A stretch of 64,000 bases of DNA from Patescibacteria group bacterium (GTDB lineage Bacteria; Patescibacteriota; Minisyncoccia; Phycocordibacterales; UBA918): the NCBI GenBank assembly GCA_039188945.1, contig JBCCYW010000004.1, forward strand, positions 2,313 through 66,312, in the 5' to 3' direction. This document shows, piece by piece, positions 198-51,391 of this stretch. The notes beneath the pieces are model-generated. The model was not told the origin of the DNA. It ran no database searches and saw only the letters and a program-made list of their open reading frames with translations. Positions within the stretch are counted from its first letter, which is position 1, and each line of letters starts with the position of its first letter. The position numbers and the translations under genes were made by a program.

Positions 198-425
198 TGG
201 TTTCTCCCAAGCTGAAGTTACATTTTATCTAAATAAATTATAACACATTATTAATATAAAGCAAATTTAATCAGTGACACCCACACTCACCTCCTGTAAC
301 ATCAGAATACTCGATTTAACATATTCCCTCTCTCTATACAGTTCTGCACCACAAGAGTATTTCCATTTTCACAGTCGCTGCCACTCCTTGAAAATTAGGT
401 CAAAGTCAGGTTTCTTGCTCGAGCA

Positions 426-1376
426 TTACAACGAACACGCACCGTTTGTAACAGAAATGTCCCAATGAGTAGCTTCACGCACATATTCATTGCCACAACT
501 ATCAACATATCGTGGACCACCATGCGATCCTTCTCGAGTCCCAGATCTTGTCAGAGTAGTCTGGAGATAGTTATCAAGCGCCGGATTGTCGTCAAGATCA
601 ATCTTATATCCATTTGCATGACTAAAGTCTCCTCCAGCATGCCCACCTTCGGTCGCTCCAGTCACCACAATATTGCAGGTTGGGCAGGCGTTTCTAATAT
701 TTAGCGTTTGATTTACCGTATCTTCATTGATGCCACCCAAGGTCGTGCAACGATCGATTCCTGTGCAGTCAGTTCGAACTCCTGATGGGCCTTGGGTACT
801 GGTTACAACAATTCCAGCATTTTGCAGCTGACTCAGAGCTTCATCATGCTGTAGCTGCCCTTCACTCACCTCACCTGGCACAAAATCAGTCGGAGCTTCA
901 GTGGGGTCATCAAGAAAACTTTGCTCATCAACACCAGCTCCCACGAAGAACTGCACAGAGACTGTTTGTGTTTGGCACTGCACCTGTTGCCATGGTCCAT
1001 AGCCCGTAATTGTCCCTTGGTCACCAGGCAACAAGACTCGGAACAAAGTGTCGACCACAAGCCAAGCTGCCAAGACGATAATGAGGCCGATGATGGCGCT
1101 TGCAAAACGATCTTTGGCATATTCGCGCGCACTCACATCTCCAGCAGATATAACTAACTTAATACCAGCCACTGCCATCACAACTGCCACAAGCAGGAAT
1201 AAAATACCGATCAACCACGAAACAAACACATTCCCCATCGAAACCAAATTACAGAAGCTACAATTTGTTCCTTCGCAGGTGAGAAAATTTTGCGCCGTAA
1301 CCGACTCTGGGAGCGCTAGTCCAATGAAGAGAATCGTGATTGTGACAATAAGTGAAAATTTCATACTATAAATCAA
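426..1376 (-). CDS. Secreted VirB2/TrbC-like pilin N-terminal domain (signal peptide, CxxxxCxxC motif, TM-loop-TM) fused to C-terminal domain tentatively peptidase M15/VanY-like (SH-x-G...D, E-x-x-HW motifs) cell-wall hydrolase
   Basis: N-terminal ~110 aa paralogous to small pilins at 15540-17191 and to 1912..2829 (motif AIIGLII.LA.WL.VDT); C-terminal domain assignment is by weak motif recognition only. Confidence 0.6.
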   Translation of the reverse strand: MIYSMKFSLIVTITILFIGLALPESVTAQNFLTCEGTNCSFCNLVSMGNVFVSWLIGILFLLVAVVMAVAGIKLVISAGDVSAREYAKDRFASAIIGLIIVLAAWLVVDTLFRVLLPGDQGTITGYGPWQQVQCQTQTVSVQFFVGAGVDEQSFLDDPTEAPTDFVPGEVSEGQLQHDEALSQLQNAGIVVTSTQGPSGVRTDCTGIDRCTTLGGINEDTVNQTLNIRNACPTCNIVVTGATEGGHAGGDFSHANGYKIDLDDNPALDNYLQTTLTRSGTREGSHGGPRYVDSCGNEYVREATHWDISVTNGACSL

Positions 1377-1902
1377 TACTACCAGGACAAAAACTAAGCC
1401 CTAATTCTTTTGCTCCGAAGGTCTCGCTTACCCTTAAACTTGTAGCGACTCGAATGGTGAGCTGACATGCATCTGTCTCAGAAATACCTAGTTTTTCTAG
1501 CAGCTCTGCTTCAGCAGCTATCCTGGCTTGTTTAAGTGGTGGTGATTCAAGAGAGATAAGAAAACTCTCGTCAGGTGCGTGAAACAAGATTTCGTAGCCA
1601 GCTTCATTTAAGCTATTATCAGCAAATTTATAATTCTCTCCATCAAAAGTTACTGTTTCATGGAGTTTTTGTATGTTGTTAACGGTAACTGATCTACCCT
1701 GAGTACCTGACACTGAGATTCGATTTAATCCAGTTGTTACAGGAGGTGTCAAATTTGCCGACACCCCAAAGTCTTCACCAACCGGATCGTTATTAATAAA
1801 CTCATCGCTCTGCTCAGAGTCTCTGACTGACTCAACAGCCAAGAATATAATTCCGACGGCGAGTGCACTGATTATAATAATTGTTGCAAAGACTGTTTTC
1901 AT
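1366..1902 (-). CDS. Membrane-anchored secreted hypothetical protein (178 aa)
   Basis: ORF with N-terminal hydrophobic anchor; overlaps the start of the downstream gene by 11 nt and lies between the two pilin-fusion genes (operon on minus strand). Confidence 0.5.
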   Translation of the reverse strand: MKTVFATIIIISALAVGIIFLAVESVRDSEQSDEFINNDPVGEDFGVSANLTPPVTTGLNRISVSGTQGRSVTVNNIQKLHETVTFDGENYKFADNSLNEAGYEILFHAPDESFLISLESPPLKQARIAAEAELLEKLGISETDACQLTIRVATSLRVSETFGAKELGLSFCPGSIDL

Positions 1903-1911
1903 AATTGAAAA

Positions 1912-2829
1912 TTATGTTGCTAACCCACACACTCTCGCCGCAGACCAATCTGCCCATGGATTTGAAGGCTGACGGTTCGCTCTTCCATCATAAATTCTGC
2001 GAGCATTTGCTAAGTTACAACTCGGGGTTTTGGCAGCAGCAGCACACTGTTGGTAGAGACTCTGATTAACAATTGTTGCATTGTAGTTTCTGCCAGAAAA
2101 CGCTTCTGGGCAATTAAGAGTCCCTCCACCAGGACCACAGCCTCGAAGTTCATGAACGGAAATATTAATTTGAAATAATCCGAACGAAAAGGCTTCCCCG
2201 GTTGAAATACGGTCGGTTAAACTTTCGCTCTGTACGTTACCAGCACTCTCACCATTGCAAACCTGAGAAGCTTGTGACGCAAGTGTAGCGTCACCGAAAG
2301 TTGATTGTAAGCTATTTGCTGAACAAGGACCGCTCGAAATGACACTACAGCTACCATTTCCAGTTGGAGCACCAGAGCTTGATGGATCAATAGAAACACC
2401 TCCCCCGACAGTATTGAACGCTCTTGATTGCGGTTGGTCGACACACTGAATTTGATTCCAAGGGCCAAAACCACCAGTATTAAACAACAGTCGAACGACA
2501 GTATCTACAATCAGCCAACCAGCTAGCAATATGATTAAGCCGATAATTGCATTAGAGAGCATCTGTCGAGCTTTTTTATACTCAGTCACATTTCCACCAG
2601 ACATCACTAAGCGAAAGCCCGAGACAACAATAACAATTCCTGCTATTACTGAAACTATCGCGACAAAAAAGTTAACAATATTATTAACGAGCTGTACAAG
2701 GCGACAACTTTGACACTCATCGCCTGGCACGCCACTACACGGCACTAAGCCAGCTTGCGCAAATAGCTCGGCATTGGGTATAAGTAAAAAAGTAAAAACA
2801 ATAAGGCCGCCGATCAAAAGGCTTTTCAT
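1912..2829 (-). CDS. VirB2/TrbC-like pilin N-terminal domain fused to lysozyme-like / lytic transglycosylase (SLT)-like C-terminal domain
   Basis: Signal peptide, CSGVPGDECQSC motif, two TM helices with KARQMLSNAIIGLIILLAGWLIVDT (paralogous to other pilins in window); C-terminus has E-x-FSFGLFQIN and NYNAT resembling SLT motifs ES/GLMQ/AYNAG. Confidence 0.6.
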   Translation of the reverse strand: MKSLLIGGLIVFTFLLIPNAELFAQAGLVPCSGVPGDECQSCRLVQLVNNIVNFFVAIVSVIAGIVIVVSGFRLVMSGGNVTEYKKARQMLSNAIIGLIILLAGWLIVDTVVRLLFNTGGFGPWNQIQCVDQPQSRAFNTVGGGVSIDPSSSGAPTGNGSCSVISSGPCSANSLQSTFGDATLASQASQVCNGESAGNVQSESLTDRISTGEAFSFGLFQINISVHELRGCGPGGGTLNCPEAFSGRNYNATIVNQSLYQQCAAAAKTPSCNLANARRIYDGRANRQPSNPWADWSAARVCGLAT

Positions 2830-2934
2830 TACCCTTCATTGTACTATGGTGCCGAGTTGCCAAGCTAGTTTACTGTGATAATCTAGTGGCCACGTTGGGC
2901 CGCGCCTGCGGCGCGGCCCACAGAACTTGAAGAT

Positions 2935-2980
2935 GCGTCGGTGGCAGAGTGGATAAGAAATGAACTGCTTCATTTCTTAT
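2935..2980 (+). repeat. 18-nt exact copy of tRNA-Tyr 5' end (GCGTCGGTGGCAGAGTGG) followed by perfect hairpin ATAAGAAATGAA-CTGC-TTCATTTCTTAT, 160 nt upstream of the intact tRNA-Tyr
   Basis: Direct sequence identity with 3114-3131; hairpin seen in sequence. Confidence 0.7.
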
Positions 2981-3113
2981 CTGGTCTTCGAACGACAGTG
3001 AGAAGATTGACCGTTGTGAGCAAAGCGAGCCGGTCAAAGGAGGACAATGTAATTAATCACGGAGCTACCGTGCAAGATTTAGTTGTCTTCCGAATGAGTA
3101 CAATTAAATTTTT

Positions 3114-3196
3114 GCGTCGGTGGCAGAGTGGTCAATTGCAACGGACTGTAAATCCGTCGGATTTATCCTACGCTGGTTCGAATCCAGCCCGGCGCA
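3114..3196 (+). tRNA. tRNA-Tyr (anticodon GTA), long variable arm
   Basis: GCGTCGG acceptor pairing with CCGGCGC, anticodon loop CTGTAAA, T-arm GCTGG-TTCGAAT-CCAGC, 3' end CCGGCGCA (no encoded CCA). Confidence 0.85.
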
Positions 3197-3418
3197 CTAT
3201 GAAAATAAATATCAGCATCTTGCTGGTATTTATTTTTATCTTAGTGAGCCCTGGATTCGAGGTTTATGCCCGGGAGCGGTAGCGTACGGGTAAATCCAGC
3301 CTTATTTTACTTAGTAATACTTGACATAACATAAACTTCATGATAACATATGGTTGGCATTGCATTTCACTTACCAGATTGGCTGGTAACGTGGTAATGC
3401 ACCAGAAGGAGATTTGCC

Positions 3419-3865
3419 ATGACCACAATATCCCTGACCGGCGATCGTGACCTGCAAATCAGTGAGCTCAAGACGTTTCCAGAAAACAGGTGGCGGGAAG
3501 CAATCCTTCACTACCTGTTCGGGATATGGGCTGATAAAGAGAGCGTGACGTATCGTCCGAAGATCCACTTCGGCACGATGTGTCTGCGTCTCAATCAGGC
3601 CAGTCGTGAATACTTCGCCTACGGCTCCTCGCCGAATTGGGAAGTTCATCAGTCCTTTAGGGGAGAAGAGATTCTCATCACCGAGGGTTGCGGTCAAGAT
3701 GAAGTCGAGGGGGCGCTGATTAGGTTCGTGAAGAACGACCGCATCAGAATCCTTGCGATCACGCTTGGCAACGACCAGTTCCTGCGGCTCTGGAAGACAG
3801 ACAAGCGTAGTGAATATGGTTGTCACGGTGATGTCCCTTCCACGATGGAAGAGATGTCCTCGTAA
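3419..3865 (+). CDS. Hypothetical protein (148 aa), possible island cargo next to tRNA-Tyr
   Basis: AGGAGA RBS 7 nt upstream, protein-like composition; the fully overlapping antisense ORF 3371..3874 is Arg-rich and judged spurious; TTGACA-N17-TAACAT promoter-like at about 3320-3350. Confidence 0.5.
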   Translation: MTTISLTGDRDLQISELKTFPENRWREAILHYLFGIWADKESVTYRPKIHFGTMCLRLNQASREYFAYGSSPNWEVHQSFRGEEILITEGCGQDEVEGALIRFVKNDRIRILAITLGNDQFLRLWKTDKRSEYGCHGDVPSTMEEMSS

Positions 3866-4123
3866 GAGCCGCAACGGGCGACAGGTTTCAGAACAGCTAC
3901 CTTTGAATGCTGTTCATTCGGCCGCCACACCAGGAGGATGTGGTGGCTTTCACTTTTATGCAAACACCTCTTCTCTTCTAACAAAACTAGGTAAGAAACA
4001 GTACTCACTTTCTATAATTACAGTTCTAACCTTGAGCATCTCAGTGCACCACACAACAAACTTGCATTTGATTGAGGGTGTGGCAAGGTGAGGAGAGATA
4101 GAGAGGAGGAGGCTACATTGTCA

Positions 4124-4471
4124 CTTGTTATTGGGCTGGCCAACTTCTTGGCATTGAGAGTTGGTATCGTACTTGTAATTTTTGGCTTATTCCCGGCACT
4201 AAAAAACCGCCTGCTCTCTTTTGTTCCAAACCTAGTGCGCTTAAGTAGGGTCGTTATTGGAACAGGATTTATTGCAGTAGCGATCAGTATTATATGGCTC
4301 GGTAAAGAAGGCTGGGAGGAAACGGTCGAACACCACATTATCTGCTTTGCCTTAACACAAGATCCGGAAATAGTACGAGATATCTTGTCAGTACTTCCAA
4401 CCGAGACCAGGGACCCAACAGAGCAAGTCGATAGTAGGCCGAGTACGGTGAAAAAGAGACTATGTGAATAG
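4124..4471 (+). CDS. Small membrane protein (about 115 aa; track gives 4088 GTG start)
   Basis: Two or three TM helices; GAGGAGG SD 8 nt before TTG at 4124. Confidence 0.4.
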   Translation, partial: LVIGLANFLALRVGIVLVIFGLFPALKNRLLSFVPNLVRLSRVVIGTGFIAVAISIIWLGKEGWEETVEHHIICFALTQDPEIVRDILSVLPTETRDPTEQVDSRPSTVKKRLCE

Positions 4472-4508
4472 CAACCGGCCGCCCCTTGATGTGGGCGGCC
4501 GTTGATCG

Positions 4509-7217
4509 TTATACCTCTACCGAATCTTTGGTTTTCTTAGCGCTCGGTTTTTTAGTGGAGACGGTTTTTCGAGCTCTCTTCTTGATGTCGAACACCAGCT
4601 CATCATTCCCCTTTTTCATACTAACCTTCACGGTACCACCTTCAAGCATTCCCTCTCCTACCATCATGTTTGCTACTGGAGTGAGAATTTTACTCTGAAT
4701 GACGCGCTTGAGTGGTCGTGCACCCATCTTCGGGTCATAGCCTTCGCGAGCCAAGTAGTCCATTACATCTTTCGTCACCGTGAGCATAATTTCCTTATTC
4801 GCCAGGCGACGCTGTACTTCCCCTACCTGCATTTCAACAATACTGCGAATCGTTGAGGTACCGAGAATATCGAAGATAATTGTCTCATCGAGTCGGTTCA
4901 AGAATTCTGGTCGGAAAAAGCCTTTAAGCGTTTCCATTACCTTATCCTTCGCTTGGCCGTATTGCGCTTCTTCGCCATGGTCATGAGTAAAGCCAAAGTT
5001 CGACATTCGGTCGATATGCTCTGCTCCGATGTTTGAAGTCATAATAATGACGGTGTTTTTGAAGTTGACCTTCCGCCCCTTAGCGTCGGTAAGGTGACCA
5101 GAATCAAGGACCTGCAAGAGAATGTTAAACACTTCAGGATGCGCCTTCTCGATCTCATCAAGCAAGATCACTGAATACGGGCGATGGCGTACCTTCTCAG
5201 TAAAGCCACCACCCTCTTCATGACCAACGTACCCAGGCGGCGAACCAATCAATTTAGAAACTGAGTGCTTCTCCATAAACTCAGACATATCAATACGCAC
5301 CAACGCTTCAGTATCGTCAAACATGAATTCAGCCAGCGCTCGAGACAACTCAGTCTTTCCTACTCCGGTCGGACCAAGGAATAAGAACGAGCCGATCGGT
5401 CGATTCGGGTCAGCAATACCAGCGCGTGAGCGCTTGATAGCATCTGACACCAGCTTTACCGCATTATCTTGACCAACCACCTTCTCTTTTAGCTCTTCTT
5501 CCATACGCGCCAACTTGTTGGCCTCCGCCTCAAGCATGCGAGCTACCGGTACTCCAGTCCAGCGAGATACCACTGAGGCAATATCTTCTTCAGTAATTTC
5601 TTCTTTCAAGAGACGGCGGCTGCGCTGCAGTTTCTTGAGACGCTTCATCTTATCTGCAAGCTCTTTCTCCACGGCCGGGATCGTATCGTAGCGAATTTCA
5701 GCCGCACGAGTGAGGTCGGCAATTGCTTCAGCATTTTCAGCCTCAACCCGCAGCTCTTCGAGTTCTTTCTTAAGCGTACTCATTTCAGTGAGAGCCTCTT
5801 TTTCATTATTCCATTTCGTCTCCAAGGCTGAGGTCTTCTCACGCAATTCACCGACTTCCTTATCAATTTCCTTCAAGCGCGCTTTGAGCTTTCGTTTATT
5901 TTCGGATGTCTCCTCCTCTTTCTTCAAAGCTTCCTTTTCAATTTCCAAACGGCGAACCTGTCGATCAGCTACCACCAATTCCTCTGGCTTATTCTCGAGT
6001 GAGATTCGCAGCGCCGAAGCAGCTTCATCAATCAGGTCGACCGCCTTATCAGGCAAAAATCGATCGGTGATGTAGCGACTAGAGAGATTTACCGCTGAGA
6101 CTATGGCGTCGTCGGTAATGCGCACTCCGTGAAAGAGTTCATACTTCTCCGCAATACCACGCAAGATCGCGATCGCGTCTTCAGTGGATGGTTCATTAAC
6201 AAAGACTGGCTGGAAACGACGCGTCAGAGCTGGGTCGCGCTCGATGTGCTTCTGGTATTCCTTGAGTGTTGTAGCGCCAATCACGCGCATCTCACCCCGA
6301 GCGAGCGCCGGCTTGAGCATATTGCTGGCATCCATCGAGCCTTCGGCTTGGCCGGCGCCAACAATGGTATGTAATTCATCGATAAAGAGAATGACGCTAC
6401 CAGCTGAAGTTTCAACTTCTTTCATCACCGCCTTGAGGCGCTCTTCAAATTCGCCACGGAACTTGGTTCCAGCCACGAGGAGTCCGAGGTCGAGGGAGAG
6501 GATTTCTTTTTCTTTGACTGATTCTGGTACCTGAGAAAGAGCAATCTGTTGTGCGAGTCCTTCAGCAATCGCTGTCTTACCTACCCCAGCTTCGCCAATG
6601 AGAACTGGGTTGTTCTTCGTGCGACGCGAGAGAATTTGGATGACACGCTGCACTTCAACATCACGCCCAATTACTGGGTCGAGTTTATTCTCTTGCGCCA
6701 GTTTAGTGAGATTACGAGTGTACTTAGCGAGCGCCCGAAATTTCTTTGGTGCTTCTGCATCAGTGACATTATTCTCACGCAGCTCTTTGATGGTCTCAAT
6801 CACTCGACCCTTTTCAATTGAGACACGTTGCAAGACCTCAATCGCCGGACCGGGGAATTCAAGTGCTGCGATAAAAAGGTGTTCGACTCCTACATATGAG
6901 TCACCAAACTGCTCTGCCACCTGTCCTGAATGTTCTAGGGCTTTCGCGAGCTCAGGTGTGAGGTACAGCTGGTATGACTGTGAGATTGAGGAGCCCATGT
7001 CAGGACTTTCCAGCGCTTCAAGGAGTAGGTCGGTCAAGGCAATAACGTCGATATCGAGTCGGTCGAGCACCGAAATAACCGCACTCTCATCCTGCATGGT
7101 AAGAGCGGTCAAGAGATGAACCGGGCTGACGTGATTCTGGCCACGCTCAATCGCTAGTTCATGGGCTTTTCTAATGGCTTCTTTAGCTTTCGAGGTAAAG
7201 TTGTGAAAATTTGGCAT
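4509..7217 (-). CDS. clpB: ATP-dependent chaperone ClpB (two AAA+ modules with long middle coiled-coil)
   Basis: 902 aa; N-domain, Walker A GEAGVGKT and GPTGVGKT, coiled-coil M-domain, C-terminal GARPLKR motif. Confidence 0.95.
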
Positions 7218-10519: not shown

Positions 10520-10531
10520 CCGAATACACTA

Positions 10532-10584
10532 TGCGGGCGAGAGGACTTGAGCCTTTGAAACAGTTTGGGGAACTGTTTCAAAGT
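10532..10584 (+). repeat. 22-nt near-exact copy of the 3' end of tRNA-Leu(TAG) (TGCGGGCGAGAGGACTTGAgCC) plus perfect hairpin TTTGAAACAGTT-TGGGG-AACTGTTTCAAA, about 60 nt from the intact gene
   Basis: Direct repeat with 10615-10636 (1 mismatch); hairpin seen in sequence. Confidence 0.65.
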
Positions 10585-10614
10585 TGCCCTAGTGCCTCTG
10601 GAAACTTTGCATTG

Positions 10615-10802: not shown

Positions 10803-10860
10803 ATATATAAATTGTGCGCCCGAGTTTACCGTAAAGCCTGTTGTAAAACAAGACGCATTG

Positions 10861-10947
10861 TGCCGGGAGCGGGACTTGAACCCGCACGCCGTTTGAAAGG
10901 CAGGGGATTTTAAGTCCCCCGTGTCTACCGATTCCACCATCCCGGCA
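10861..10947 (-). tRNA. tRNA-Leu (anticodon TAA), long variable arm
   Basis: Reverse complement TGCCGGGATGGTGGAATCGGTAGACACGGGGGACTTAAAATCCCC...GGGTTCAAGTCCCGCTCCCGGCA. Confidence 0.85.
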
Positions 10948-10969
10948 AAGGATGACTGGTGTATTTTGT

Positions 10970-11044
10970 CTCGACACAGGAGACTTACAGTCCCCGCAGT
11001 TTGTGTCCCACACAATCCTGCCTACCGATTCCACCATCCCGGCA
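10970..11044 (-). repeat. tRNA-like fragment: 22-23 nt exact copy of tRNA-Leu(TAA) 5' end (TGCCGGGATGGTGGAATCGGTAG), then hairpin GCAG-GATTGTGTGGGACACAAA-CTGC and an anticodon-arm-like GGGGACTGTAAGTCTCC; no T-arm
   Basis: Direct repeat of 10925-10947 located about 75 nt upstream (on minus strand) of the intact gene. Confidence 0.65.
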
Positions 11045-11114
11045 TGGAAGTGTGCGCAGCATAATAGCATAATTACTTGGTGAAAAAAGGCTCAAATGCT
11101 ACAGTATCGCTTAC

Positions 11115-11161
11115 GGCCAGGTGGCGAAGTAGATAGAGTGTGCTGGGAGCAGACTCTATCT
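11115..11161 (+). repeat. 16-nt exact copy of tRNA-Cys 5' end (GGCCAGGTGGCGAAGT) followed by hairpin AGATAGAGT-GTGCTGGGAGCAG-ACTCTATCT, 83 nt upstream of intact tRNA-Cys
   Basis: Direct repeat with 11198-11213. Confidence 0.7.
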
Positions 11162-11197
11162 GAGGTCTTAGACCGAATCGTTATCTGGCTGAAAGTT

Positions 11198-11269
11198 GGC
11201 CAGGTGGCGAAGTGGTAACGCTTCGGTCTGCAAAACCGACATGCACGGGTTCGATTCCCGTCCTGGCCT
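11198..11269 (+). tRNA. tRNA-Cys (anticodon GCA)
   Basis: GGCCAGGTGGCGAAGTGGTAACGCTTCGGTCTGCAAAACCGACATGCACGGGTTCGATTCCCGTCCTGGCCT. Confidence 0.9.
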
Positions 11270-11273
11270 CAGA

Positions 11274-12764: not shown

Positions 12765-12861
12765 ACCAGCTGGGCGCTGGCTACGCCAGCGCCCAGACAC
12801 ACTCTCATCCTATTTCAGCCATATTTACAAAGCCAGATTAGAGGGTTAAAACTTGACTTTT

Positions 12862-12890
12862 AATTGATTTTGTGATATTATTAAAAGTGG
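12862..12890 (+). promoter_or_regulatory. Sigma70-like promoter TTGACT-N17-TATTAT, upstream of the SPFH gene (long 5' leader with three small hairpins)
   Basis: Near-consensus hexamers seen in sequence. Confidence 0.45.
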
Positions 12891-13154
12891 GATGGGGGTA
12901 CTATACCCCGACCGTGCGGTCGGGCAATGGTGCCCACCATAAATAGTTCGCGGCTCGGGCTTTCATCCTCGCCGCCTTGAAAATAGAAAGGAAAACGCAT
13001 GCAGCGGTTTCTTGATCTACTCAAAACAATCGGAGAAAATTTCGGACCCTCCATTGTGAGGGCCTGGAGTCTTCTATCTTCGTTCGTTTCAAGTGCTTGG
13101 GCAGGTGTCACCTCCCAGTATAAAAACCTCGAACAGATCAAAATGGAGGTGTTG

Positions 13155-25345: not shown

Positions 25346-25933
25346 CTAATTATATTTGTTCATCGCGGCCTCAGGGCCGTTTTTTAGTACTTCCTCGATC
25401 GCTAGACGAGCAGTTTCATAGACTTCTGGCAATTTCCCTCGCTCCAACATGCCAAATGGTTTTAAGACAAACCGCTCCAACGCTCCCCCGCCCGCTGGCC
25501 GTTGCTGCTCACCAGTCCAAAAACTCTTTGGCGCAATCCCAATCCGAATCCGCACAAAGTCTTTACTACCCAGCTTCTCAATAATTGATTTGATGCCGTT
25601 GTTCCCCCCGGCTCCGCGACCCTTTCCCACCTTCACCTGCCCAAGCGGCAAATCGATATCATCATGCACGACAATTAGCTTAGAAACTTCGCCTTTTGGC
25701 ACCATCTTTATGACCGCTGAGCCAGAATTATTCATATAGGTATCTGGGTACAGTACTTGTACGTACTCCTCCCCCACTTTTCCTTCAGTTGTGCGACCAC
25801 TAGACGATTTTTCTTCAATCAAACTCGGCAGATTCCACGCCTGCAGCGCCAAATCAAGCGCCTGCCATCCAACATTGTGCCGCGTGTTGGCGTACTTATC
25901 TCCTGGATTACCGAGTCCTACTATATAAAACAT
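25346..25933 (-). CDS. pth: Peptidyl-tRNA hydrolase
   Basis: MFYIVGLGNPGDKYANTRHNVGW... classic Pth N-terminus. Confidence 0.9.
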   Translation of the reverse strand: MFYIVGLGNPGDKYANTRHNVGWQALDLALQAWNLPSLIEEKSSSGRTTEGKVGEEYVQVLYPDTYMNNSGSAVIKMVPKGEVSKLIVVHDDIDLPLGQVKVGKGRGAGGNNGIKSIIEKLGSKDFVRIRIGIAPKSFWTGEQQRPAGGGALERFVLKPFGMLERGKLPEVYETARLAIEEVLKNGPEAAMNKYN

Positions 25934-26063
25934 ATTACAGAGTATAGTACATTCGTTTCTTACGAGATTTCAATATTCGTTGCACAAAGTGACATGGTAC
26001 ATACTCAGCCCCTCCTATTGGCTCATAAACATCGCCAATTATCGACTATCGTCGATACCAGAG

Positions 26064-26121
26064 AAAAAGTAAAGCAGTTTACTTTTTCTCCTGGATTACC
26101 AAGTCCGACTATGTAATGCAT
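26064..26121 (-). repeat. Diverged copy of the first 13 codons of pth (MHYIVGLGNPGEK) followed by hairpin AAAAAGTAAA-CTGC-TTTACTTTTT, about 150 nt upstream of the real pth start
   Basis: 31/39 nt identity to pth 5' end; hairpin seen in sequence. Confidence 0.65.
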
Positions 26122-26345
26122 ATCTAGTACGACTATCTTACCTTACGTGAGTAACGTCGAGCAATTTTGTAACCTTGCGCAGACGTAAATGTATACACTG
26201 TTTTATGGACTGCATGAATGATTTTCGGAGGGCGGTGTTGGGGCGGTGGGCGTAGAAAATTATTTATGCAGTCCATTTATAAAACTTTAAACGAAAATTT
26301 GTGCGTGCCTTTCATTTCGATTATACTAGTGGAAATTGTACGACT

Positions 26346-28526: not shown

Positions 28527-28904
28527 ATGTCTGTATCTATCGCTAGCAGCGTCAAGTCGTACCCTCGCCACAACTACGCAATAATGGCTGAAGATATTCT
28601 CGGTAAGCGCTATGACGTCTCGCTCGTGTTTGTTGGCACCAAGCGAGCCCAATCACTTAATATTCAGTACCGAAACAAGTCGTATACACCAAACGTCCTA
28701 TCCTTTCCGCTGAGTAACGAACAGGGAGAGATCTATATCTGTCCATCGGCCGCTAAAGCGCAAGCTAAGGACTTCACGATGAGCGAACGCGAATATATAG
28801 CGTTTCTATTTATCCACGGGTGCCTCCATTTGAAAGGACATACTCACGGGGCTACAATGGAGAAAGCGGAGCAACGGTATTTCAAGAAATATTTCCGCCG
28901 CTAA
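28527..28904 (+). CDS. ybeY: rRNA maturation RNase YbeY
   Basis: HGCLHLKGHTH zinc-binding motif. Confidence 0.8.
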   Translation: MSVSIASSVKSYPRHNYAIMAEDILGKRYDVSLVFVGTKRAQSLNIQYRNKSYTPNVLSFPLSNEQGEIYICPSAAKAQAKDFTMSEREYIAFLFIHGCLHLKGHTHGATMEKAEQRYFKKYFRR

Positions 28905-28930
28905 AGCGCAAGACCCGCGTTACGTTTTTT

Positions 28931-33414: not shown

Positions 33415-34125
33415 TGCGAAAAACGTTCCAACAAAATAGGCCAAAAGAGCGGCGGTACCGCCGACGGCAACTACTTCAAAGAGCGATGGTAAAATTTTGG
33501 TCCCAACCGCGCGCCACTTCAATAGGCCGAGTAAAATAAGCGCGGTAGCGGTGCCAAGGGAAGAATACAAGAAAGCAGCTCCAGCGTCTCCTTCATTCTG
33601 AAGCATGAAGGGTAGTAGTGGAATTGCTCCAAACACCATAAATGAGACGAAAGTAGCGAGCCCAGTGAAGATTTCATTTTCCCCTCGAGGGTCTGGCATT
33701 TCACGCTGGTGTTGCATCATAAAATCAACCCAGTAGTCTTCGTTGTGTCGATAGATGTTTGCTAGCGTTCTCGCATCGGCCTCTGAGAAACCTTGGTTTA
33801 TGATAACTGTCACAGTTTCTTCGATCTGCTGTTCAGGATCAGTCTCTGCTTGTAGGCGTTCTTTGTTTCGATATGAAGTATACAAATCTTTCTCAGACCG
33901 AACCGAAAGAAAATTCCCTAGACCCATCGAAGCCGCGTCAGCAAATAAGTTTGCTAATCCAAACAAAAGCACCACCATAAATGAGAGTTGGGTGGTGGCT
34001 TCGTTACTCAACGCCGCTCCAGCAAACCCGGCCACTACCGCAAAGGTAGTAATAATGCCGTCAATCCCACCGTAAATAATTTCTTTAAAATGGTCGGCCA
34101 GGGCTGAGGGTTTTTCTTTTTCCAT
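33409..34125 (-). CDS. VIT1/CCC1-family membrane protein (iron/manganese transporter-like)
   Basis: GGIDGIITTFAVVAGFAGA... and five TM helices; start at MEKEKPS (track start 34251). Confidence 0.65.
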   Translation of the reverse strand: MEKEKPSALADHFKEIIYGGIDGIITTFAVVAGFAGAALSNEATTQLSFMVVLLFGLANLFADAASMGLGNFLSVRSEKDLYTSYRNKERLQAETDPEQQIEETVTVIINQGFSEADARTLANIYRHNEDYWVDFMMQHQREMPDPRGENEIFTGLATFVSFMVFGAIPLLPFMLQNEGDAGAAFLYSSLGTATALILLGLLKWRAVGTKILPSLFEVVAVGGTAALLAYFVGTFFAL

Positions 34126-34796: not shown

Positions 34797-35045
34797 GCTT
34801 CAAAATTGGTGGACCCACGGGGATCGGTCAGGAGTCGGTTATTTTCTGTGGTCACGAGTTACTAACCATAATCTTTACTTCGCAAAGATTCAGCTAAGTA
34901 CTCTCGACCCCGGCTCACTCCTTTTCTGCTCAAAGTAGGGAGCAGAAAAGATCGCTCCGCCTATCACTGAAACACGTGAGTGAAATTATTCACTCACTAA
35001 AGTAAAGACCACTGGATAGTATCCAGTGGTCTTTACTTTATCTCA

Positions 35046-43156: not shown

Positions 43157-43207
43157 GCGCATGTAGCTCAGCTGGTTAGTGGTTTGAATAAATCCCATTT
43201 ATTCAAA
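43157..43207 (+). repeat. Orphan tRNA 5' fragment (GCGCATGTAGCTCAGCTGGTTAGTGG; no anticodon/T arm) followed by perfect hairpin TTTGAATAAAT-CCC-ATTTATTCAAA, upstream of tRNA-Val
   Basis: Seen in sequence; resembles tRNA-Ile/Ala 5' halves. Confidence 0.55.
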
Positions 43208-43250
43208 CCATTTCCATTTTGAGGTCGGGCTAGAAGTTACAAATCAATAT

Positions 43251-43323
43251 GTCCGGTTAGCTCAGCTGGTAGAGCGCTACATTGACATTGTAGAGGTCAC
43301 AAGTTCAAGTCTTGTACCGGACA
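43251..43323 (+). tRNA. tRNA-Val (anticodon GAC)
   Basis: GTCCGGTTAGCTCAGCTGGTAGAGCGCTACATTGACATTGTAGAGGTCACAAGTTCAAGTCTTGTACCGGACA. Confidence 0.85.
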
Positions 43324-43406
43324 CAACACCTGGGAGGTGTTGTGTCGATGTATCACCACTGAACGCGGCCGACAAACACCTGCGACAGCTGTGTTTGTTG
43401 AGTAAT

Positions 43407-50931: not shown

Positions 50932-51300
50932 CTATCTACACTTTACTGAAATTGAGTAATTCGTACCATCATCTTCAAATTTTGTTACATGTGCTTTTTC
51001 ATTAACTTCAGTACACTTAAGGGTATCAAACCTCATATTACGCAGCACATTTGGAGCATTTTTGTATGCCTCTAAAATTCTCATTTTGACGTCTTCTTCC
51101 GCAACAACTTCTTCATTTAAAAATCTTTCAAATTCTTCTACAGGTGGCGCCGCTTCTGCCTCTTCAGAGTCAAATCCTACCTTCATTGCTAAAGCGCCAC
51201 CACCCAACCGTGCACTCTTTCTCAAAAATTCTCTTCTGCTTAATTCTGGCTGTCCTTCCACATTTAGATTATAGCATGCATCAAGGGCAGATTCGGTCAC
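50932..51300 (-). CDS. Small protein with twin-arginine (Tat)-like signal SRREFLRKSARLGGGALA
   Basis: RRxFLK motif followed by hydrophobic stretch. Confidence 0.45.
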   Translation of the reverse strand: MTESALDACYNLNVEGQPELSRREFLRKSARLGGGALAMKVGFDSEEAEAAPPVEEFERFLNEEVVAEEDVKMRILEAYKNAPNVLRNMRFDTLKCTEVNEKAHVTKFEDDGTNYSISVKCR

Positions 51301-51391
51301 AAGTCAAAATCAAAGATTTTGCTCGCGACCCTGGCTCGCTTGTAAACATCGTTCCGCCTTTCTCGTCTGCTAACACAAAAAGCAGTTTTTG

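Follow-up and report, generated by a model that had tools for sequence, protein, structure and literature searches.

Gene-end stubs, hairpins and probable inverted relics beside tRNA genes and pth in a lineage of Patescibacteria

Four genes within a 64-kb stretch of contig JBCCYW010000004.1, hereafter the window, are preceded by a partial copy of their own beginning. The stretch comes from a bacterium of the Patescibacteria (Candidate Phyla Radiation, CPR) and hosts housekeeping genes and type IV secretion pilin genes; the four genes encode tRNA-Tyr, tRNA-Cys, tRNA-Leu-TAA and peptidyl-tRNA hydrolase (pth). In each of these 5' modules the native promoter is followed by a stub that repeats the first 16-40 nt of the gene, then by a hairpin, by an insert of 67-160 nt without an open reading frame (ORF) and finally by the intact gene. 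A second class of modules, the 3' modules, lies behind tRNA genes, and most tRNA genes of this bacterium have a module of one class or the other beside them. We find that the module pattern is real, reproducible and lineage-wide. The explanation we favour, to which we give about an even chance, is that the modules are eroded direct-inverted-direct duplications of gene ends, that is, tandem inversion duplications (TIDs), made by template switching at hairpins and subsequently reduced by deletion.

Results

The 5' modules are not products of chance or of assembly

Direct repeats of at least 14 nt at a spacing of 40-450 nt number seven in the window, whereas 200 block shuffles average 0.055 and never exceed 2. 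In this respect a preliminary description of the locus, which had judged the upstream copies too regular for chance, was right. The four copies lie where it had placed them, matching their genes at 19 of 19 nt (Tyr), 16 of 16 (Cys), 25 of 26 (Leu-TAA) and 34 of 40 (pth). Repeat length thus takes the values 16, 19, 26 and 40 nt, and all stubs begin at position -2 to +1 relative to the gene. Perfect hairpins with a stem of at least 9 bp occur 38 times in the window (stems of 9-20 bp in 64 kb), most of them without a T-run; because there are only 38, the presence of such a hairpin within a few nt of five of the six stubs is far beyond chance. Perfect stems of 9-14 bp abut the copy at Tyr, at Cys, at pth, on the 3' side of tRNA-Leu-TAG and at an orphan fragment upstream of tRNA-Val. 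The junction hairpins are AT-rich (stem GC 0.21-0.33). A perfect AT-rich hairpin directly after the copy had been claimed for all four genes; Tyr, Cys and pth have one, and at Leu-TAA a stem of only 6 bp begins 3 nt beyond the copy. The loop CTGC is indeed common to the hairpins of Tyr and pth, a tetraloop that recurs in the trailer hairpin of tRNA-Phe (51372-51389) and in an antisense-arm hairpin of the relative L083 (~4488-4512).

The possibility that the hairpins are ordinary terminators, raised at the outset, did not survive an intrinsic terminator scan: only the Val hairpin (43178-43212) passes, and the Tyr, Cys, pth and Leu hairpins, which have no U-tracts, fail. A scheme in which the hairpins terminate and the inserts supply new promoters was likewise rejected, as consensus scans back a terminator only at the Val hairpin and a promoter only in the pth insert.

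A contig assembled independently (Logan, SRR22824305; L081) is 99.94% identical across window positions 419-5607, the Tyr module included. Given this contig and the homologous modules of the relatives L083 and L174, the modules are no assembly artefact. With the repeat excess over shuffles added, we consider that a chance match or an assembly artefact has virtually no prospect of being the explanation.

Labels beginning with L denote compared loci. The orthologous region was compared in eight relatives whose ClpB is 82-85% identical (L082, L083, L172-L175, L177 and L178). The nearest relatives reach a ClpB identity of 82-91%, and the best relatives in a representative-genome collection are only 65-70% identical and are labelled Saccharibacteria. 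The nearest relative, L171 (ClpB 91%), has no tRNA gene in the 18.9 kb surrounding clpB; its tRNA cluster and tRNA-Tyr are located elsewhere or lost. tRNA genes of the window were called with ARAGORN and Rfam, and Rfam at gathering score finds tRNAs and RNase P, nothing else, in the window and four relatives.

An empty site and inverted copies at tRNA-Cys and tRNA-Leu-TAA

The preliminary description had proposed a comparison with orthologous loci to learn whether modules are ancestral or variable, and the comparison shows that they vary: among relatives with a ClpB identity of 82-85% (L083, L173, L174, L177) a module may be present or absent, L083 carrying one at Tyr, L174 one at Leu-TAA and L173 being empty. 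In L173 the order and orientation of the tRNA genes are as in the window, the locus is compact and there is no module at Tyr, Cys, Leu-TAA or Leu-TAG. Between its Cys (- strand) and Leu-TAA (+ strand) genes lies a divergent promoter region alone, orthologous to window 11045-11114. In the window this same region is bordered by both stubs, and the intact Cys and Leu-TAA genes are displaced outward. Since the genes of L173 are uninterrupted and the native promoter adjoins the stubs, the inserts sit inside gene starts.

The tRNA-Cys stub (11115-11130, + strand; positions 1-16 of the tRNA, GGCCAGGTGGCGAAGT) repeats 11198-11213 and adjoins the native promoter region. It is followed by the junction hairpin (11131-11161, +; 9-bp stem, 13-nt loop), by an eroded inverted copy of approximately positions 1-34 of the tRNA with an internal deletion (11163-11191, +) and by the intact tRNA-Cys gene (GCA; 11198-11270, +). 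We aligned each insert colinearly, with lenient gap costs, to the antisense of its own gene and compared the score with those obtained for nine other genes of the window. For Cys the alignment has p=0.001 and a score of 27.5 against at most 18.5, and it includes an antisense arm forming a 13-bp duplex with GGCCAGGTGGCGA that was matched by none of 500 shuffles. The gene-proximal junction at Cys is a palindrome made from duplicated sequence, and the stub-side hairpin is not recognisably derived from the gene.

On the opposite strand, the tRNA-Leu-TAA stub (11019-11044, -; position -1 to 25) repeats 10922-10947, and the insert (10947-11018, -) separates it from the intact gene (10860-10946, -). 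Small hairpins (11001-11015 and 10979-10995) lie inside an eroded inverted copy of the whole tRNA, aligned from the trailer to the tRNA 5' end with large internal deletions (p=0.001; score 35 against at most 22.5).

By these alignments, the inserts are eroded inverted copies of their own gene, clearly at Cys and Leu-TAA, moderately so at Tyr and weakly at pth (below). Given that they align to the antisense of their own gene, the layout reads as direct stub, hairpin, eroded inverted copy and intact direct copy.

The tRNA-Tyr locus and the co-variation of stub and gene

At tRNA-Tyr the upstream flank adjoins a stub (2934-2952, +; position -1 to 18, TGCGTCGGTGGCAGAGTGG) that repeats 3113-3131. 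The junction hairpin HP1 (2952-2981, +) has a perfect 13-bp stem and shows no recognisable derivation from the gene; the insert (2982-3112, +) opens with a T-arm-like piece (2982-2999) and carries a TACAAT box at 3101-3106, and the intact gene (GTA) occupies 3114-3197 (+). A colinear antisense alignment places a putative eroded inverted copy of the whole tRNA at ~3020-3091 within the insert (p=0.04; cognate score 31 against at most 29). The Tyr insert of L083 gives p=0.056 in the same comparison, and its ATTGACCAC is the antisense of the D-loop. The inserts of the window and L083 agree at 90% over their first 82 nt, and the L083 hairpin carries a compensatory A:T to G:C change. Within the window, homology links the Tyr hairpin and the ~20 nt that follow it to the corresponding stretch at pth (38/49, z 6.9).

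Within each genome the stub equals the gene even though the genes differ between genomes, and this holds in two independent cases. The D-stem of tRNA-Tyr reads GGCAGAG in the window and GGTGGAG in L083, and each stub carries its own genome's version. Likewise, the Leu-TAA genes of the window and L174 differ by three substitutions and a D-loop indel, and each stub matches its own gene. Because the agreement extends to loop positions and to an indel, the identity is accounted for by copying, not by selection for base pairing. Of the origins suggested at the outset, template switching or gene conversion is thus the one we favour, on the direct-hairpin-inverted-direct layout and on this identity across lineage-specific substitutions.

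Several observations at this locus stand on their own. Within the window insert, 3036-3052 holds a strong Shine-Dalgarno-like AAAGGAGG followed by ATG with TAA immediately behind it, a start-stop pair; at the equivalent site of L083 the ATG opens ORFs of 20-22 codons beginning MTLTTY in both copies of a 187-nt repeat. The L083 Tyr 5' module is a period-187 tandem (4692-4713 and 4879-4900) in which a 22-nt block, AGCGGACAATGACATTGACCAC, that includes the D-loop antisense, and the 19-nt stub are repeated exactly, the intervening ~58 nt being unrelated. In L086 an ORF of 79 aa for a GIY-YIG nuclease (12783-13019; MWYVYILKS...YYIGCTNNLERRIKEHN) lies between a tRNA-Tyr 5' stub, in which a GC-rich hairpin replaces the D-loop TGG, and the intact tRNA-Tyr; it is the only such cargo seen. 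A link to the endonuclease was dropped, since tblastn with the L086 protein found no other copy in the compared loci and none in the window.

The pth module

The only protein gene of the set repeats the pattern at 25346-26123 on the - strand. Its stub (26084-26123; position -2 to codon 13, allele MHYIVGLGNPGEK) corresponds to 25896-25935, and its hairpin (26061-26090; 13 bp, loop CTGC on the gene strand) has the native codons 11-13 as its 5' arm and their inverted copy as its 3' arm. These codons read GGAGAAAAA, the same in relatives. As native codons followed by their reverse complement, the hairpin is what a fold-back junction would look like. The insert (25936-26060) contains a sigma-70-like TTGAAA-18-TACTAT at 25944-25973, found by the promoter scan, and a possible inverted copy of the pth start at ~25973-26000 (22/27 matches, p=0.014 against the stub); intact pth, whose homologues carry PF01195, follows at 25346-25933. 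The stub (MHY...EK) and the gene (MFY...DKY) represent two alleles, both present in relatives, and pth in L162, L163 and L165 has no stub or module. A diversity-generating retroelement was considered here, and adenine-specific differences between template and variable repeats were rejected by eye.

Two further direct repeats concern protein genes of the window. The 16-nt GCCGCTAAAGCGCAAG occurs exactly at 28749-28764, in frame within a YbeY-like gene, and again at 28897-28912, 148 nt downstream, where it overlaps the stop codon of that gene in another frame; there is no adjacent hairpin, and this may be an event on the 3' side of a protein gene. The 14-nt CACCATAAATGAGA is found exactly at 33634-33647 and 33973-33986, spaced by 339 nt, in or near a VIT-family gene.

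An alternative tRNA-Val allele

The orphan tRNA 5' fragment with hairpin reported upstream of tRNA-Val is indeed there, and it can be identified further as the stub of another tRNA-Val allele, which L168 has in intact form. At 43157-43250 (+) the window holds this stub (43157-43179), a 14-bp hairpin (43180-43210), a relic of the variable region and a piece of promoter, followed by the intact tRNA-Val (GAC; 43251-43324, +). In L168 (2360-2700) the intact tRNA-Val stands within an 11-bp leader/trailer inverted repeat and is nested in the D-loop of the other, fragmented allele; pieces of that dead allele persist around the nested gene, with a 57-nt insertion exactly at T-loop T55|C56. L170 has the window's allele only and no stub.

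3' modules and a candidate structured RNA

The 3' modules consist of an intact tRNA, a terminator hairpin, an antisense copy of its last ~20 nt, a core of ~80-100 nt, a sense copy from the T-loop to the discriminator and a second terminator, the antisense copy often being interrupted by a small hairpin. They occur in relatives and, in the window, behind tRNA-Leu-TAG, tRNA-Tyr, tRNA-Glu and tRNA-Phe. The copy of the tRNA-Leu-TAG 3' end with its hairpin, already noticed in the preliminary description, is a truncated member (10527-10613, -) made of a spacer, a 13-bp hairpin (10553-10583) and a 3' stub (10527-10554, 25/28), and is absent in L173. The scrambled Tyr-like pieces it had seen at 3245-3300 (+) are antisense (CTGGATTCGA) and sense (AATCCAGCC) bits of the tRNA-Tyr 3' end joined by GGAGCG, a deletion derivative when aligned with the intact modules of L083 and L174. 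The modules downstream of tRNA-Glu and tRNA-Phe, like the inverted copies and the alternative Val allele, had not been described. That of tRNA-Glu (34808-34974, -) has a structured core and a decayed 3' stub; that of tRNA-Phe (51277-51371, -) ends in GAATCTGCCCTTGA, a copy of the tRNA 3' end.

When each antisense arm is paired with the 3' ends of the tRNAs of all modules, the strongest pairing is with the cognate tRNA in 10 of 19 modules. The cores are more alike across tRNAs within a genome than at the same tRNA between genomes, and L010 and L086 have Tyr arms in common with different cores. A covariance model built from eight cores, R1, with a cut-off of E=1e-6, finds 30 matches in the CPR loci (~0.5 Mb): two in the window, at the Glu (56 bits, E ~1e-17) and Phe (45 bits) modules, and 28 elsewhere (L001, L003, L004, L008, L010, L086, L094-L096, L099, L171 at 79-183, L172 and L174). 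There are none in control loci or in E. coli. Twenty-eight of the 30 lie 11-359 nt downstream of a tRNA on the same strand, and nine tRNA species are represented. Pairing is kept in 91.6% against 65% in shuffles, with 158 against 45 double-sided changes, in an alignment fitted to the model; one conserved G.U pair in 19 of the 30 sequences points to folding of the tRNA-sense strand as RNA. Motifs of the core are AAAGNCGGAG, GAGNCNGGGTCG followed by a hairpin, and TGACC. We regard the R1 core as a candidate new structured RNA family, without an Rfam family of its own. A core motif, GCCGGGGTCGCGAGAT, is identical at 14 of 16 positions to the tRNA-Leu 5' end GCCGGGGTGGCGAAAT (L095 ~360-380, and family-1 cores in general), and the R1 core may descend from a tRNA-Leu 5' stub and hairpin.

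Across the lineage, a census of 110 tRNAs finds a copy of the 3' end at +92 to +178 nt in ~17 and a copy of the 5' end at -69 to -300 in seven; none lies at kilobase distance, and no module exceeds 300 nt. The same census in non-CPR control loci gives zero. Relatives also show tandem arrays with alternating sense and antisense copies (L001 and the period-187 repeat of L083). In L001-L010, L082-L099 and L172-L177 the orientation of the Tyr, Cys, Leu-TAA, Leu-TAG and Lys tRNA genes relative to clpB flips repeatedly, and the protein genes next to the flipped tRNAs keep their place.

Discussion

Likeness to known systems

The closest parallel to the 3' modules is the RtT repeat of the E. coli tyrT-tyrV locus (RF00391, RttR; K-12 record), whose ~178-bp units stand in tandem directly downstream of the tRNA, each starting with GGGGAAGGAT, the complement of the tRNA's ATCCTTCCCC, and closing with the final 19 nt of tRNA-Tyr, repeated exactly. 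The 3' modules share this layout of complement start and tRNA 3'-copy end, have a similar spacing (92-178 nt) and likewise form arrays, and a 13-nt motif, AGGAGCGAAGCGA, is common to E. coli RtT and the L083 module. Homology between the two was rejected, the likeness being confined to short motifs with overall similarity not significant for most pairs. The RtT covariance model, which gives four matches of 133-137 bits in the E. coli control, has none in the window, L083 or L174, also when short stretches are scanned with the E-value limit relaxed to 10. The known RtT units belong to a single tRNA, whereas the 3' modules occur at nine tRNA species, and the 5' class and the protein-gene case are found here and not in RtT. 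The likeness is one of shared architecture, not of demonstrated family membership, and we regard the 3' class as a previously unseen form of RtT-type repeat. An Aggregatibacter small RNA, AaHKsRNA41 (RF02901), resembles the L083 Tyr 3' module in its order of 5' arm, hairpin, second arm, tRNA-3'-end-like segment and terminator; at 27 bits against a gathering score of 97 this too is an architectural resemblance rather than membership. A search of the literature on Saccharibacteria and Patescibacteria found no description of such modules, and the 5' class and the pth case appear to be undescribed.

A proposed fold-back origin

TIDs and the template switching at quasipalindromes have reportedly been worked out in laboratory systems of Salmonella and E. 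coli (Kugelberg, Reams and Roth; Ripley and Lovett), the TIDs in laboratory selections. They resemble the modules in having three copies with the middle one inverted and short palindromes or hairpins at the junctions; later remodelling by deletion, and hairpin-templated correction that renders the arms identical, would be further points in common. They differ in that laboratory TIDs are of kilobase scale, transient and under selection, whereas the units here measure 80-190 nt, have become fixed, are conserved across species, cluster at tRNA genes and have in part been exapted as structured RNA. Three copies with an inverted middle are found at Cys and Leu-TAA (p=0.001 each) and less strongly at Tyr and pth.

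What we observe is the anatomy of the modules, an empty site, inverted copies, stubs that co-vary with their genes and a polymorphism of orientation; from the anatomy we infer the following mechanism. Replication would pass the gene, and the nascent strand would snap back at a hairpin and copy the gene backwards, giving an inverted copy. At a second short palindrome near the gene start, synthesis would turn forward again and a third copy would be made. The resulting long palindrome would be unstable and trimmed by deletions, to leave the first 16-40 nt of copy one beside the native promoter, the junction hairpin, a riddled inverted copy and an intact, functional third copy. The intact gene may be expressed by read-through from the native promoter with trimming of the leader by RNase P, or from -10-like boxes in the insert; since the promoter scan is positive in the pth insert only and the terminator scan at Val only, the two routes are equally likely. 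The stub, the inverted copy and the gene could pair, and hairpin-templated correction would then keep the stub equal to the gene. tRNA genes would flip when inverted copies recombine, and a module would be cleanly lost when direct repeats do, giving the patchy distribution in relatives. The 3' modules are the mirror image, an intact gene followed by terminator hairpin, antisense arm, core and 3' stub, and their core would have turned into a conserved structured RNA. Fold-back thus accounts for the junction hairpin, the inverted copy, the stub-gene identity, the clean loss and the orientation flips, and it needs no enzyme encoded by an element; none is found among the 29 window ORFs scanned.

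A number of points weigh against a fold-back origin, or at least against fold-back alone. The homology of the Tyr and pth hairpins with the adjoining ~20 nt joins two unrelated genes, which a local fold-back does not predict and which suggests ectopic copying or a small mobile hairpin unit. The 90% conservation of the first 82 nt of the Tyr insert, compared with ~85% (a count by eye) for the tRNA gene itself, means that the insert is not simply decaying. Behind nine tRNA species, the covarying 3' cores have clearly spread between tRNA loci with re-made arms, which goes beyond TIDs alone. At pth the stub and the gene differ at 6 of 40 positions, both resembling natural alleles, and import of a foreign allele fits at least equally well. 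The inverted alignments at Tyr and pth are marginally significant under lenient gap costs. Every stub starts at -2 to +1, which the model does not obviously require, and to our knowledge TIDs have never been shown as fixed features of natural genomes. These misfits keep three other explanations alive: a mobile module, a selected RNA function and the replacement of gene ends, in that order of probability.

A possible mobile module

The first of these, which we consider unlikely on balance, sees the modules as miniature, non-autonomous integrative units that enter site-specifically at a conserved loop of the gene and carry a replacement end, the displaced end being the stub. Such a unit might enter as folded single-stranded DNA, its sense and antisense arms imitating the target in the manner of the attP of the CTX phage or the attC of integrons. 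The D-, anticodon- and T-loops, in which the breakpoints lie, are classical sublocations of integrases. In integrative elements that target a gene end, such as tRNA 3' ends, the insert is flanked, as in the modules, by a direct repeat consisting of that end, and the gene stays intact. The repeats extend to the gene boundary, like those at tRNA and dusA sites; in the 5' cases the displaced fragment lies upstream. Elements that target the 5' end of dusA are described as restoring the gene end (PMC4482086), and in Caldiarchaeum a 5' fragment of tRNA-Thr accompanies a 1.8-kb element (PMC3293823). The empty sites of relatives, the one hairpin unit present at both Tyr and pth, the 3' cores common to different tRNAs with locus-specific arms, the Tyr arms of L010 and L086 that are alike around different cores, the stacked arrays of L001 and the GIY-YIG gene inside an L086 module all agree with mobility.

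Against it stands the size and content of the units. Integrative elements are kilobases long and encode their own integrase; the inserts here are 67-160 nt, non-coding and decayed copies of the target gene, and among the 110 tRNAs nothing longer than 300 nt is seen. A Pfam scan of 29 window ORFs found no integrase or other recombinase, transposase, reverse transcriptase or homing endonuclease (HNH or GIY-YIG). BLAST of every insert against all compared sequence (~1 Mb) showed each to be unique apart from its orthologue, the 5' inserts having no sequence in common. Viral contigs scanned for exact occurrences of a 22-mer that is conserved in the Tyr insert gave tRNA matches only, as did a distant search against a phage collection. 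Repeat length, moreover, varies from 16 to 40 nt. Of the earlier suggestion that the modules are scars of integration and excision, the position inside a gene start, with L173 as the empty site, therefore stands, and the foreign origin does not, since the inserts are not foreign and the scanned ORFs include no integrase or transposase. Two more specific versions were rejected. A miniature inverted-repeat transposable element or transposon does not fit 5' inserts that are single-copy in ~1 Mb and form no repeat family with terminal inverted repeats, and a target duplication of fixed stagger is ruled out by repeat lengths of 16-40 nt and by every repeat starting at the gene boundary.

A narrower form of the idea, which we likewise consider unlikely, concerns the 3' core and possibly the Tyr/pth hairpin unit. 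These may be a protein-less mobile or self-propagating RNA-coding module that spreads between tRNA loci. By way of an RNA/cDNA or a folded single-strand intermediate it would take on arms that replicate the tRNA of each new locus, and the end of its transcript would mimic the acceptor/T helix and so borrow tRNA processing.

A possible selected RNA function

Somewhat less probable again is that stub, hairpin and antisense arm form a selected leader or trailer which, acting for instance as a 5'-end decoy or as a mimic of the tRNA end, governs how the tRNA is folded, processed (RNase P or Z) or transcribed, and that selection maintains the likeness to the gene. The covariation of the 3' cores (pairing, double-sided changes and the G.U pair given above) and the position of 28 of 30 R1 matches just downstream of a same-strand tRNA speak for such a role, as do the similarly laid out RtT units, which are annotated as the small RNA RttR, and the weak match of the L083 module to AaHKsRNA41. 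In accordance, modules fold far better than shuffles (z -5.8 and -5.0), and the compensatory change in the Tyr hairpin and the conserved insert hint at some constraint. On the other hand, a close relative, L173, does without 5' modules, the Tyr and Leu-TAG 3' modules of the window are decayed or truncated, the stubs follow loop positions and indels that pairing does not constrain, the hairpins are not canonical terminators and the 5' inserts share no sequence. An RNA function is compatible with any origin, and so it partly overlaps with the fold-back explanation.

Possible replacement of gene ends

The weakest of the three, and in our view improbable, is the replacement of gene ends, either by transformation with homeologous DNA whose hairpin-protected tail is joined illegitimately inside the resident gene, or by the decay of tandem duplicates, the usual assumption for E. 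coli tyrT-tyrV. It would fit the two pth alleles that both occur in relatives, the Val alleles that displace each other by nesting (L168, window and L170), the GGAGAAAAA that an arm of the pth hairpin has in common with the resident gene, resembling a junction microhomology, the DprA gene of the relative L172 and the similar tyrT-RtT-tyrV layout of E. coli, but predicts neither inverted copies of the same gene in the inserts, nor stub-gene identity at tRNAs, nor cognate antisense arms, nor shared cores at different tRNAs.

Implications

In practice, stubs and relics of this kind can mislead the annotation of tRNAs and small RNAs, and the R1 family can now be searched for in transcriptomes. If a protein-less module were behind the 3' cores, it would represent a new kind of element parasitic on tRNAs, or a new level at which CPR bacteria control the maturation of tRNAs, with E. 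coli RtT as a distant analogue. If, as we favour, the modules arose by fold-back, the tRNA genes of a reduced genome would be hot spots of fold-back duplication and inversion that leave stubs, hairpins and relics as fossils, and this would account for the fast change of tRNA orientation and spacing in the lineage. For RtT-type repeats, obscure in history and role ever since their discovery at E. coli tyrT, the process would supply an origin, and the modules would be a natural, fixed counterpart of TIDs, otherwise a matter of laboratory selections.

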